From a virus (Duplodnaviria; Caudoviricetes), in the IMG/VR virus record IMGVR_UViG_3300020411_000002: a stretch of DNA of 64,000 bases; one strand, written 5' to 3'. The number at the start of each line of letters is the position of its first letter. Within the stretch, counting starts at the first letter, position 1. The position numbers and the translations under genes were made by a program. Below the pieces are notes generated by a model. The model saw only the letters and a program-made list of their open reading frames with translations, was not told the origin of the DNA and did not search any database. Shown here piece by piece: positions 54,399 through 59,470 of the stretch.

Positions 54399-54946
54399 GT
54401 CCTGTTCGTGTAATGCACCGAGTTATTCCAAGCATGGTAGACAACGGTAAAGTCTATCGCAATGATAACTTGGTGTTTGGATACTCGAATGGGCTTTACT
54501 ACAGAATTGTACTTACAGAAGAACCGTTCGGAACGCAGGACTGGATTGTAGAAACTATTGAAACAAGCAGTACAATGAGTTGTTTCAGAGAAGACGATTT
54601 AGAACTGACCCTTACTCCGTTCAATGTTAACTATGATTTTGATTTGGTACAGAAAGTTGCTGAGCCTGAAATTGGAACAGTAGAAGACGTAGACCGCGAC
54701 TTAATTATAGCACTAATGGAATACGGCTTTAGAGAAAGAATGGTATCTAACAGACTATCTTCTATCTCTGGCATGACGGTCTGCATGGGTGGAGTTGCTA
54801 AGTATCTAAGTTACTACTCTACTCTTCTTGATGATGCTGGAATAGAAGTTGAGTTTGAGAGTAGCTTTCTTACTATAGGTAAGAACGGTCTTGTTCTACA
54901 TTCTGGTATCGTTGATTCAAAAGATAAATTCTTTGTAAGACTATAA
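54392..54946 (+). CDS. Hypothetical protein
   Basis: 184-aa ORF followed by a terminator. Confidence 0.7.
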   Translation: MVSPVRVMHRVIPSMVDNGKVYRNDNLVFGYSNGLYYRIVLTEEPFGTQDWIVETIETSSTMSCFREDDLELTLTPFNVNYDFDLVQKVAEPEIGTVEDVDRDLIIALMEYGFRERMVSNRLSSISGMTVCMGGVAKYLSYYSTLLDDAGIEVEFESSFLTIGKNGLVLHSGIVDSKDKFFVRL

Positions 54947-54967
54947 GGGGGCTATGCTCCCTTTTTT
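54946..54967 (+). terminator. Rho-independent terminator
   Basis: AGGGGGC-TAT-GCTCCCT then a T run; stem nearly identical to the terminator at 24372-24400. Confidence 0.8.
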
Positions 54968-55010
54968 AATGTCTGAGTTTCACGCTAATTTAAAAGCGTG
55001 GAGGTCATGA

Positions 55011-55916
55011 ATGGAAATAGAACAATTCTTAAAAAACGTTCTTGGATTCGAACCAATTTCTAACGTAGAGAAAGAACCTCATACGTTGCCTTTTTTGCCT
55101 AGCGGATTTTTCCAAGAGTTTGTTAGAGGGAAGTGGAGAATTAGAATCTTAGATACTCATTCGCTTGAAGATAGAGCGAAGATAGGTGTTATTGTTTTGG
55201 TAGATATAGGACTAAAACAGCACACCTTGTATAAGGGTTATATAAATCAGAACGATGGACTTTCTCAGTTTCGTCGTATGTTACAATCATGTACTGATTT
55301 ACTTGATAACCCTGATGATTATTCTTGTGAAAAAATAATTCTATCTCAGGATAATCCTAGCTTACATTCTAGTGCGTGTATTCACATGTACTACATTTGG
55401 AAATTTGATGACCTTCTTGCAAGTTCAATTCCATCCGGCTTTAATGTATTAATACCAGAAAACGTACCCTTTGATGATTGCATAGATTTCGTAAATGGAT
55501 ATCTTTTGAATCTAGGTGCGTCGCATATTGGAACTAAGACATATAAAGCTTTACCCAATTTCAACAAAAGTTATGCACAACATTTTAGAAGCGTAGGAGT
55601 CAACGTATTAGACTTAGACGAATCGGGTAGACTGGTACTTAATAAGGACACTATTAAGGACAAGATATACAAACTTAAAAATGTTGAGACTGCATACATA
55701 GTAAGATTCGCACTCAAAGCCATTCTAGAAAAGCGAACGGACTATGCTATAGAATTTCTAAAGGATGTAGGTTTAATCAAGGATATGATTATAAGTCGTA
55801 CCAAGCACAACACTGTGCGTATAGCTTTTATGAGTGTTAACTTTGGAGATATTGAGGTAGTAGGATGCTTGGATGAAATTCTCAAAAATATTCAAAGAAA
55901 GTTTGGTAAGTTATGA
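55011..55916 (+). CDS. Hypothetical protein coupled to the ACP homologue
   Basis: 301-aa ORF, GGAGG SD, ATGA overlap with the ACP gene. Confidence 0.75.
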   Translation: MEIEQFLKNVLGFEPISNVEKEPHTLPFLPSGFFQEFVRGKWRIRILDTHSLEDRAKIGVIVLVDIGLKQHTLYKGYINQNDGLSQFRRMLQSCTDLLDNPDDYSCEKIILSQDNPSLHSSACIHMYYIWKFDDLLASSIPSGFNVLIPENVPFDDCIDFVNGYLLNLGASHIGTKTYKALPNFNKSYAQHFRSVGVNVLDLDESGRLVLNKDTIKDKIYKLKNVETAYIVRFALKAILEKRTDYAIEFLKDVGLIKDMIISRTKHNTVRIAFMSVNFGDIEVVGCLDEILKNIQRKFGKL

Positions 55917-56143
55917 AAACAAAAGACCGTGTGTTTAACTGCATCAAAAGGCAGATGGGTAAGTCAGATATAAATCTTAGCACTGACTTGAAAAATGACC
56001 TCAAAGCAGACGACCTAGATTACATAGAACTGACTATGAGATTAGAGTCAGAGTTTGGTATTGCTATAGACGATGAAAAGTTTAGTACTTTGAAAACTGT
56101 AAATGATGTATATAGATACGTAACGGAACTTGCAGATGCTTAG
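55913..56143 (+). CDS. Acyl carrier protein homologue lacking the phosphopantetheine serine (DSLD to DDLD)
   Basis: DLKADDLDYIELTMRLESEFGIAIDDE...LKTVNDVYRYV aligns with AcpP [20 protein letters not shown]..EIPDE...ITTVQAAIDYI. Confidence 0.9.
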   Translation: MKTKDRVFNCIKRQMGKSDINLSTDLKNDLKADDLDYIELTMRLESEFGIAIDDEKFSTLKTVNDVYRYVTELADA

Positions 56144-56251: not shown

Positions 56252-57100
56252 ATGCTTTTGAAGAACTATCCTGAACTGATGGTAAGCATAATGCATCAAG
56301 CGTTTAGTTTTGCAGGTTTAAGCTATGCGCGTAGAAGAAAGACAGGTGCTATCGTGCTTCGTCATTTGGAAGGCAAAGAGTTTACACCAGTAGCGTTTGG
56401 CTATAACGGTACTCGACCTGGAGAATCTAACTTATGTGAAGATGCGAACGGAGATACTTTAGATACTGTTATTCATGCTGAGCGTAACTGCATTAGAAAG
56501 ATGATGAATCAAGGTGTTGCCACTCCCGGAAGTATACTGGTAGTAACGTTTGTCCCCTGTCCTGATTGCGTTGAGTTGATTATCGATGCCAAGTTCAAAG
56601 AAGTTATTTACTGTCACGATAGTAATAATCCGCAAAAAGTAAAAGGTCTTGAAAAGCTGTTTAATAAAGTTAGCGTATCTCGCGTAGATATCAAAGACGT
56701 TATTGAATGGGGCAGCTATGTTCAAGATGGATTGAACATGCCCAAGTTTTTAGGTACTGTTGCAGAGTCTGAAAACAAAGCACTAGATAGATTTGTCCGT
56801 ACTAAGTCTATAGAAGAAATCGATAGAATAGTTAAGCACTTCTTTGATACGGTTCAAAGAGTACATCGTTTAGAGTCTACGGATTTTCATAGAGAACTGT
56901 ATTTCAATACTCTACACCGCAATCTTCACGGTACTAGACGAGAGTTTTTCAAGTGGTGCAATCTAGCATACGAAACTATTTCCGAAATACAACTTAAATC
57001 AGAAGACCCAATATTAGGCATAGAAGAGTTCATTGACTTTTATCTACTAGCGCCTTTTATTAAATCTCCAAAGCAAAGTAACAATGAGTATAACCAGTGA
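56252..57100 (+). CDS. dCMP deaminase with C-terminal extension
   Basis: GYNGT.PG..N.CE, HAERN, PCPDC Zn motifs. Confidence 0.9.
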   Translation: MLLKNYPELMVSIMHQAFSFAGLSYARRRKTGAIVLRHLEGKEFTPVAFGYNGTRPGESNLCEDANGDTLDTVIHAERNCIRKMMNQGVATPGSILVVTFVPCPDCVELIIDAKFKEVIYCHDSNNPQKVKGLEKLFNKVSVSRVDIKDVIEWGSYVQDGLNMPKFLGTVAESENKALDRFVRTKSIEEIDRIVKHFFDTVQRVHRLESTDFHRELYFNTLHRNLHGTRREFFKWCNLAYETISEIQLKSEDPILGIEEFIDFYLLAPFIKSPKQSNNEYNQ

Positions 57101-57353
57101 AGCGCGTATTTCTGTCTATTTCGTAAAGCGTACATTTAGTCAGTATTACGATATTGAAGTAGGTGAGTACTTTATTAGTATTCACGGCAATTATCGAAAA
57201 GTAGAAGTGTTGAACTTAGACGATGCTTCTTTTAGAATCTTGTCCTCCACATCGGTTGATGTTACACGCATAGACAAAGAATACGTAGCAAGCGTACATG
57301 TCACTGTGGAACTATCGGATACCGGTTTAATAACAAAGCGAATAGTTGAATGA
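57084..57353 (+). CDS. Hypothetical protein
   Basis: 89-aa ORF overlapping neighbours. Confidence 0.65.
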   Translation: MSITSEARISVYFVKRTFSQYYDIEVGEYFISIHGNYRKVEVLNLDDASFRILSSTSVDVTRIDKEYVASVHVTVELSDTGLITKRIVE

Positions 57354-57748
57354 TAAAATATGATTTAGAACCTTACTTTATTAACAGTACTTGGAGAGCA
57401 ATCGTTGATAACGGGCTTACTCCTTACATTACACTTGTCGTAGATGAACGTTGCAATGTTCCGCAAGAACACATCAAAGAGAAGAACGGTCTTCCTACGA
57501 TCACGTTTAACACAAGTCTTGTTGCTACTCCTAATATTGTGATGAACGATAAAGAAGAGTACATTACGTTTAGCGGTTCATTTAGCGGTCGTCGTATAGA
57601 TATTCAGTTTACGTATGACAACATCGTAGCAATCTACGCTAAAGAACTTAAAGACTTTGGCATAGTAGTGCCGTACACTCCTCCAAAGCAAGTTGAGCAA
57701 GAACAAGAACCAGAACGCGCTAAGCCTGTGCTGCAAGTGGTGAAGTAA
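57350..57748 (+). CDS. sspB: SspB-like ClpXP adaptor (stringent starvation protein B)
   Basis: PY...DNGLTPYI...VPQEH...ITF.GSFSG...IVAIYAKE and C-terminal KPVLQVVK (E. coli SspB ends RPALRVVK). Confidence 0.88.
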   Translation: MIKYDLEPYFINSTWRAIVDNGLTPYITLVVDERCNVPQEHIKEKNGLPTITFNTSLVATPNIVMNDKEEYITFSGSFSGRRIDIQFTYDNIVAIYAKELKDFGIVVPYTPPKQVEQEQEPERAKPVLQVVK

Positions 57749-58084: not shown

Positions 58085-59470
58085 ATGAAAAGTTTGGAAT
58101 TTGAATGTTCGGATTTTACCAAAGTATACACTACTACAGGTCTGTATCCTAAGTTCTCAATCTCTGTATTTCTAATGGATGCAGTTGACCTAGAACCAGG
58201 TCAAGTGTTTGAAGATATAAGAATCACTAATTCGTCTGGTACTTATGTCCAAGAAGGTTTCTTTAAACTTACTTCTGTTATGCAAGGTCCTAATACTCAT
58301 ATATTAGAGCTTTCCACTATGTCCTCGTCTGGTATTCTCAATGATGTAGATTGCCAGTACTTGAATGTTGCGCAAAAGATTTTAGACGAAGGTTATCACT
58401 CAGAAAACAGAACCAAAACAAACACGTACAAACTGTTTGGCGATGCGCAATTAAAGTTCGACTTACGTGAAGGTTTACCTGTTCTAACTACCAAGAACGT
58501 ATTAGTAGGTGCATTGAAGAAAGAACTGTGCTGGTTTAATCGTGGTGAGACTAACATCAAAACACTTGGTACTCCTATTTGGGACGAATGGGCAACTGAG
58601 TCTGGTGAGCTAGGTCCTGTCTATGGTGAGCAGTGGAGAGACTGGCTTGCTTGGCATGAAGTGCATGAATCACAAGTTGAGAAAATCAAGTTCTTAGAAG
58701 AGCAAGGTTACACTAAAGGTTATCAAATTGGTGGATTCCTTTTATTCCACAAGCGCATTGACCAACTCAATCAGTTAATTGAGAACATCAAGAACGATCC
58801 AAACAATCGTCGAATGATTGTTTCTGCTTGGAATCCTACTGTAGACCCAGACACTAAGCTCACACCAAACAAGAACGCTGAACTTGGTATGCAAGCGCTG
58901 CCACCTTGTCATACATTATGGCAAGTAGGTTGCACTAAAATAGCTAACGTATATGATCGCGAAAAAGAATGGATTCGCCTTGAAGCTATTAAGAACATGC
59001 ATGAAATGGGCATCTATTATGATGAAGCGTATGTTATAGCTAACAACCAATGGGTACTATTTGTATCGGATACTGCGGTGCGTCTGGATGAACGTAACGA
59101 TGAAATAATATTAACAGAAGCATTGGATTCAGTAAACGCACCTGACTACTATCTAGACTTAAAGCTTTATCAGCGTAGTGCAGATTGGTTCTTGGGCGTA
59201 CCGTTTAATATAGCTAGCTACGCTATGCAGGCTGAAATACTTGCCGCTCATACAGGCACTGTAGCTCGTAACTTCTATCATTCGTTTGGTGATTTCCACA
59301 TTTACGAAAACCATGTTGACCAGTTACGAACTCAGATAGAGCAACCGCACAAAGCACTTCCGCGTTGCTACATTGAAAAGCAAAAAGACATTGCGCACTA
59401 TCTGCCAGAGCATATTCATGTACTTGGATATGAAGGCGGTATCAAACTAACAGGGGACGTTGCCGTATGA
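58085..59470 (+). CDS. thyA: Thymidylate synthase with N-terminal extension
   Basis: FDLREG.PVLTTK, ELCWF, IWDEWA, LGPVYG.QWR, RRMIVSAWNP, ALPPCH, YQRSADWFLGVPFNIASY, HIYENH. Confidence 0.95.
   Translation: MKSLEFECSDFTKVYTTTGLYPKFSISVFLMDAVDLEPGQVFEDIRITNSSGTYVQEGFFKLTSVMQGPNTHILELSTMSSSGILNDVDCQYLNVAQKILDEGYHSENRTKTNTYKLFGDAQLKFDLREGLPVLTTKNVLVGALKKELCWFNRGETNIKTLGTPIWDEWATESGELGPVYGEQWRDWLAWHEVHESQVEKIKFLEEQGYTKGYQIGGFLLFHKRIDQLNQLIENIKNDPNNRRMIVSAWNPTVDPDTKLTPNKNAELGMQALPPCHTLWQVGCTKIANVYDREKEWIRLEAIKNMHEMGIYYDEAYVIANNQWVLFVSDTAVRLDERNDEIILTEALDSVNAPDYYLDLKLYQRSADWFLGVPFNIASYAMQAEILAAHTGTVARNFYHSFGDFHIYENHVDQLRTQIEQPHKALPRCYIEKQKDIAHYLPEHIHVLGYEGGIKLTGDVAV

Follow-up and report, generated by a model that had tools for sequence, protein, structure and literature searches.

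A serine-less acyl carrier protein homologue encoded in conserved overlap with a phage-specific gene in marine and freshwater phages

Acyl carrier proteins (ACPs) are among the most connected of bacterial proteins, and they are defined by the serine of a D-S-L motif, to which phosphopantetheine is attached. A short gene in the stretch of Caudoviricetes DNA analysed here (64,000 nucleotides, hereafter referred to as the window) encodes an ACP-like protein with an aspartate at this position. This raises the question of whether the substitution is real and maintained and, if so, what an ACP fold that is never loaded might do for a phage. We find that the gene product is a real and conserved ACP-fold protein that does not act as a carrier. 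Its new element, compared with the other known cases of serine-less ACPs, is a conserved phage-specific partner with which it is co-translated. The features of the locus and the corresponding sites in related phages are collected in Table 1.

Table 1. The serine-less ACP locus and its counterparts in related phages (positions without a prefix refer to the window).
Feature	Position or record	Strand	Remarks
Intrinsic-terminator-like hairpin with T-run	54945..54963	+	Terminator scan and fold
Second hairpin	54978..55003	+	MFE fold; ribosome-binding site (GGAGG) of the 301-aa gene partly paired
Gene for conserved protein, 301 aa	55011..55916	+	Stop overlaps start of the ACP-like gene (ATGA)
Gene for serine-less ACP-fold protein, 76 aa	55913..56143	+	Pfam PP-binding, E 2.2e-10
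Codon 34, GAC (Asp)	56012..56014	+	Phosphopantetheine-acceptor serine position, aligned to B. subtilis ACP
Single-pass membrane peptide, 37 aa	56136..56249	+	Overlaps stop of the ACP-like gene; 39 aa if the start is TTG 56130
dCMP-deaminase-domain protein, 282 aa	56252..57100	+	Pfam dCMP_cyt_deam_1, E 1.5e-13
Canonical D-S-L ACP, Phage NCTB	L001:6579-6827		
Canonical D-S-L ACP, L006	L006:7389-7646		
Canonical D-S-L ACP, L014	L014:5374-5646		
Serine-less ACP, clade of the window	P0002-P0007; loci L015, L019, L020		83-87% identical; Glu (GAA) at acceptor site
Serine-less ACP, clade of 232-250-kb contigs	L006, L014		Glu at acceptor site
Serine-less ACP, TARA Oceans contig clade	L008		Asp (GAT) at acceptor site
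Serine-less ACP, Phage NCTB (surface water)	LT598654, 257,877 bp		Asn (AAT) at acceptor site

By sequence comparison, the reading frame is a clear ACP homologue. Its product scores 41.1 bits against the Pfam PP-binding family (PF00550), and thus passes the gathering score of 20.8, and it matches phrog_5934, annotated as 'acyl carrier protein', with an E value of 2.2e-15. A profile of its family also retrieves solved ACPs from the PDB, the best of which is B. subtilis ACP (1HY8; E 1.4e-13). The alignment to 1HY8 is free of gaps around the motif and from helix II onward, and the serine column is unambiguous: the column occupied by Asp, Glu or Asn in the phage proteins is that of the serine in G-A-D-S-L-D. 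The motif at codon 34 of the window protein, counted from the ATG, reads K-A-D-D-L-D, which confirms the claim of the initial annotation that a GAC codon stands at the acceptor position.

Judged from its family matches, the gene is best explained as a derivative of an ACP of the fatty-acid-synthesis (FAS) type. It scores 65.9 bits against NF002148 (FAS-type ACP) and 55.6 bits against TIGR00517 (the AcpP equivalog), in both cases below the cut-off (71 and 70.45, respectively). The protein belongs to the same family as the type II FAS ACPs (AcpP/AcpA; PF00550, TIGR00517; 1HY8), has the same length and shares with them the helix-II docking motif D-x-L-D-x-x-E-L-x-M-x-L-E-x-x-F. Identity to true ACPs from metagenomes is 36-49%. 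The acidic recognition surface of helix II is kept (D33, L35, D36, E39, E45 and E47), and four of these residues, D33, L35, D36 and E39, show little or no variation when true ACPs are included in the comparison as well. In contrast to the type II FAS ACPs, the acceptor serine has given way to Asp (Glu or Asn in relatives), the scores fall short of the equivalog cut-offs, helices I and II are joined by a shorter loop, an arginine (R43) lies within helix II, helix I is basic and the overall charge is reduced to about -4.5 (pI 4.7). The gene is moreover phage-encoded and coupled to that of a 300-aa protein found only in phages.

The relatives fall into four phage lineages from marine and freshwater habitats, with genomes of about 230-260 kb and ACP-like proteins that are 36-87% identical. 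The defining serine is absent from all of them: every relative has Asp, Glu or Asn, and never Ser, at the acceptor position, and the loss is therefore lineage-wide. The change to aspartate which the initial annotation had emphasized is less general than the loss itself, being found in the window and in L008, whereas the close relatives of the window and the L006/L014 clade have Glu and Phage NCTB has Asn. The accompanying idea of a phospho-mimic is weakened by this distribution, since it requires a negative charge and the NCTB lineage has an uncharged Asn. The proposal that the protein cannot be modified fared better: besides the loss of serine from the canonical site, no alternative serine is conserved across the ACP-like sequences of the four lineages, which points to a protein that would escape phosphopantetheinylation throughout the group.

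A sequencing error or a private mutation can be rejected. The identical 76-aa protein stands for about 201 contigs in a large protein collection, the stretch recurs in numerous marine metagenome runs, which belong to about ten studies, and DNA contigs of two other runs, which may include the source sample, show no difference at codon 34; the relatives carry GAA, GAT or AAT at this codon. A megablast search of the locus against phage records gave no match. The reading frame is intact in all lineages and, in comparisons of the window with its close relatives, the ACP-like gene evolves under purifying selection (dN/dS of 0.09-0.18 at dS of 0.2-0.8). These values indicate that the gene is functional and that the loss of the serine is old and maintained.

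Where the phages need a carrier, this function appears to lie in a different gene, since two relatives possess a separate canonical ACP. In Phage NCTB, as in the L006/L014 clade, there are exactly two genes for PP-binding proteins, one for a protein without the serine and one for a protein with a D-S-L motif, and the canonical gene sits one or two genes past the dCMP deaminase, two or three from the serine-less gene. In the window (57084-57353) and in L008 an unrelated ORF of about 85 aa takes its place, and no second ACP was detected by tblastn within the 64 kb of the window. Searches of NCTB and of the 93%-complete record G002 detected neither a phosphopantetheinyl transferase (PPTase; PF01648) nor an AMP-binding enzyme. 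The FAS ACP models of NCBIfam distinguish the two types of phage protein, in that the canonical paralogue scores 22-30 bits, well under the serine-less protein.

What accompanies the serine-less gene in every locus fetched is the gene directly upstream, which encodes a protein of about 300 aa. The two genes overlap by 4 nt in all four lineages (the window, L001 of NCTB, L006/L014, L008, L015, L019 and L020), so that the coupling proposed in the initial annotation is borne out by its conservation. Orthologues of the 300-aa protein are 40-90% identical and were found only in this phage group, in searches that included a profile search of 5.8 billion proteins. Its gene is under stronger constraint than the ACP-like gene (dN/dS of 0.06-0.10), and four residues, C94, C106, H191 and H266, do not vary among the four lineages, which makes them a possible metal or catalytic site. 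RNA-library contigs cover parts of both genes, which is weak evidence since DNA carry-over is possible.

The 301-aa protein has no Pfam or PHROG family. AF2 models of the 300-aa protein reached a pLDDT of 63 and 71. With these models, VIA-wide, AFDB clusters, BFVD, PDB Foldseek and Atlas searches returned nothing above background except the NCTB orthologue, and an ESM Atlas feature search returned nothing; residues 1-100 gave only generic alpha+beta matches. Two candidate assignments were considered and rejected. Residues 137-175 resemble MbtH-like proteins (PF03621) at just E 1.2 (to PDB 5U89_B), and three related records have no PF03621 match at E 10. Residues 204-282 match the McbB family (TIGR04424) at 24.1 bits against a cut-off of 65, and this match is confined to five members that are about 90% identical and is absent from the orthologues at 40-49% identity. 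As the protein has neither a recognisable family nor a confident fold, no mechanism follows from it.

The small gene that follows also takes part in the arrangement. It encodes a single-pass membrane peptide, and the coupling claimed for it holds in the window and, more widely, for three lineages out of four: the close clade, the L006/L014 clade and NCTB all have a peptide of this architecture, whereas L008 lacks one. At the other end, a terminator-like hairpin closes the upstream unit just 5′ of the 301-aa gene and is followed by the second hairpin, and the minimum free energy fold of 54940-55016 has -28 kcal/mol (z -4.4). The stem of the second hairpin is kept in L015, where one G-C pair has become A-T through a compensatory double change and a G-U wobble occurs once. 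Close relatives share 97% identity over the intergenic region 54945-55010, against a dS of 0.5-0.8 in the flanking coding sequences, and this conservation suggests that the region may be an element of translational or transcriptional control. A candidate promoter motif, TGTAAATA, is not enriched in the window and is absent near the ACP-like locus.

The conserved translational coupling makes the phage's own 300-aa protein, which the initial annotation had mentioned as mere context, the first candidate partner. We give an even chance to the reading in which the serine-less protein is a permanently apo ACP fold that functions by binding only, most likely as a dedicated subunit or adaptor of the co-translated 300-aa protein. 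With the serine permanently lost, acyl groups could not be carried, and what would remain is protein-protein binding by a constitutive 'apo-ACP'. Translational coupling would ensure that the ACP-like protein is made together with the 300-aa protein, on which it would dock through its acidic helix-II face (the six residues named above), and the membrane peptide, whose gene comes next, may bring the module to the inner membrane. The gene overlap itself is a sign of co-expression of the two proteins and not of contact between them. Complex prediction for the pair gave a score of 0.00, a 'no answer' which is evidence neither way. Binding of the two proteins and the role of their putative complex are what we infer from this arrangement.

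The protein might instead be a free-standing decoy of host AcpP, occupying the docking sites of AcpS, of Fab enzymes or of acyltransferases of the PlsB type. Host lipid synthesis would then be throttled, as it is by excess apo-ACP in E. coli, and the 300-aa protein would be a mere co-expressed neighbour. We regard this as the main rival reading, possible but less probable. It gains from the fact that the best family matches of the protein are models of housekeeping FAS ACPs, which it fits far better than the canonical paralogue does, from its identity to true ACPs with the docking helix retained, and from the recurrence of serine-less ACPs in unrelated phages with different neighbours (G-G-D-D-L-D in Vi01, D-E-L-D in L012). 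There is also a precedent: apo-ACP has been reported to inhibit glycerol-3-phosphate acyltransferase strongly and to stop the growth of E. coli (review PMC3896788). This is likewise a case of an ACP without its prosthetic group acting by binding. The apo-ACP of E. coli, however, is an overproduction artefact of a host protein, whereas the phage protein is unmodifiable by virtue of its gene sequence. Against the decoy stand the much lower acidity of the window protein, the arginine in its helix II and the basic character of its helix I, as well as the conserved overlap with the 300-aa gene, which a decoy leaves unexplained. Blocking of host lipid enzymes seems plausible as an effect, by analogy with E. 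coli. As to SpoT, which the initial annotation had named among the possible targets, the same precedent weakens the idea, since SpoT was reported not to interact with apo-ACP in E. coli (PMC3896788). The subunit and decoy readings are compatible, in that the pair could be a unit that engages a host target.

Serine-less ACPs are not restricted to this phage group. Salmonella phage Vi01 (Ackermannviridae) encodes a protein, Vi01_122c, that like the window protein combines an ACP fold and a retained helix II with an acceptor site occupied by Asp (G-G-D-D-L-D). Unlike the window protein, it has a 45-residue N-terminal extension; the two are 29% identical over 61 residues, and the Vi01 protein is not among the tblastn matches of the window protein at E 1e-3. 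Upstream of Vi01_122c lies the gene for a VWA-domain protein of 738 aa that has no relationship to the 300-aa protein, and given this unrelated neighbour, what serine-less ACPs have in common may be a target in the host and not a partner from the phage. Among the ACP domains of the best 150 representatives drawn from 1.84 billion proteins, the acceptor residue is Ser in 147, Glu in 16, Asp in 12 and Asn in 2. The representatives without serine lie in part on phage-like contigs and in part on cellular-looking ones. A tree of about 100 ACP domains, based on 70 columns and with support for 5 of its 95 branches, does not separate a single loss of the serine from multiple losses.

Two further examples may be mentioned. 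An 8.2-kb phage-like metagenome contig encodes an unrelated serine-less ACP with a D-E-L-D motif (P0028; L012:3547-3998), which is overlapped just downstream by the gene for a 72-aa membrane protein with two hydrophobic segments, an arrangement that echoes the membrane peptide of the window. On a 20-kb farmland-soil contig, a serine-less protein with the motif A-D-E-L-D (P0102; L010:1895-2122) is encoded next to EF-G and an AI-2E transporter and falls within a small D/E cluster of the ACP tree. The latter contig looks cellular, which suggests that serine-less ACPs are not confined to phages.

A literature search found no paper characterising serine-less phage ACPs, though such papers may exist; duplicated ACPs in Flavobacterium jumbophages were noted in a 2026 paper (PMC13573597), in which the serine was not analysed. 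Rather tentatively, one may imagine that serine-less ACPs form a widespread and undescribed class of phage effectors, genetically fixed 'apo-ACPs' that seize ACP-docking sites, represented in this group of jumbo phages by a three-part module (300-aa protein, ACP look-alike and membrane peptide) that would redirect or shut down host membrane-lipid synthesis or another ACP-dependent host process in the course of infection. A phage protein with the docking surface of an ACP but no capacity for loading would lend itself to probing or inhibiting the interactions of ACP with its clients, be it in lipid synthesis, in lipid A or in other ACP-dependent complexes. For annotation, the consequence is that virome surveys ought to leave serine-less genes out of their counts of auxiliary lipid-metabolism carriers.

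An improbable alternative is that the two genes encode a virion- or tail-associated accessory pair, in which the ACP fold would act as a small structural or assembly adaptor and the 300-aa protein would provide an alpha/beta core like that of sheaths. Residues ~110-280 of the model with pLDDT 71 repeatedly align with contractile sheath proteins of tails, type VI secretion systems (T6SS) and contractile injection systems (CIS), accounting for about 20 of 50 rows in VIA-align (Z 4.7-6.4), for the top Foldseek match (3HXL, E 6e-3) and for rows 1-2 in the ESM Atlas (TM 0.42), but all these scores fall in a range that the tools describe as frequent among unrelated folds (Z below 8, TM below 0.5), and 300 aa is short for a sheath protein. 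A putative ACP of a Vi01-like phage is listed in a virion proteomics table, in a single retrieval (PMC10892097). The block begins about 3.7 kb from divergently transcribed baseplate and PAAR genes; nevertheless, a terminator precedes the gene, and its neighbours in the block are a dCMP deaminase, an SspB-like protein and a thymidylate synthase.

It is very unlikely that the protein is still a carrier, with phosphopantetheine on another residue or with a different covalent cargo on the Asp or Glu. Amino-group carrier proteins do carry a covalent cargo on Glu, and in the phage protein the acidic residue stands at the exposed N-terminus of helix II, flanked by an invariant D-x-L-D. The four lineages nonetheless share no serine that could serve, the Asn of NCTB offers no carboxylate, and neither a PPTase nor an adenylating enzyme turned up in the two related genomes searched. 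That the gene is a functionless ACP copy in decay is hardly credible: loss of the key residue is what would be expected of a pseudogenising carrier, but the frame is intact in all lineages, at 36-87% identity, both the docking motif and the overlap of the genes have been conserved, and the measured dN/dS contradicts it. The binding-only subunit of the 300-aa protein is the reading that we favour.

The dCMP-deaminase gene has the same position in all four lineages and is the next gene of a conserved block, in which the order downstream is dCMP deaminase, SspB-like protein, long thymidylate-synthase homologue and DHH/DHHA1 protein. The SspB-like protein (window 57350-57748; Pfam SspB, E 6e-8) is conserved in position in the relatives and may be a ClpXP adaptor mimic or hijacker. 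The thymidylate-synthase homologue (window 58085-59470) is 461 aa long, with an N-terminal extension of about 90 residues and a Pfam match that is split in two; it makes up a pyrimidine-metabolism block with the dCMP deaminase and the DHH/DHHA1 protein.
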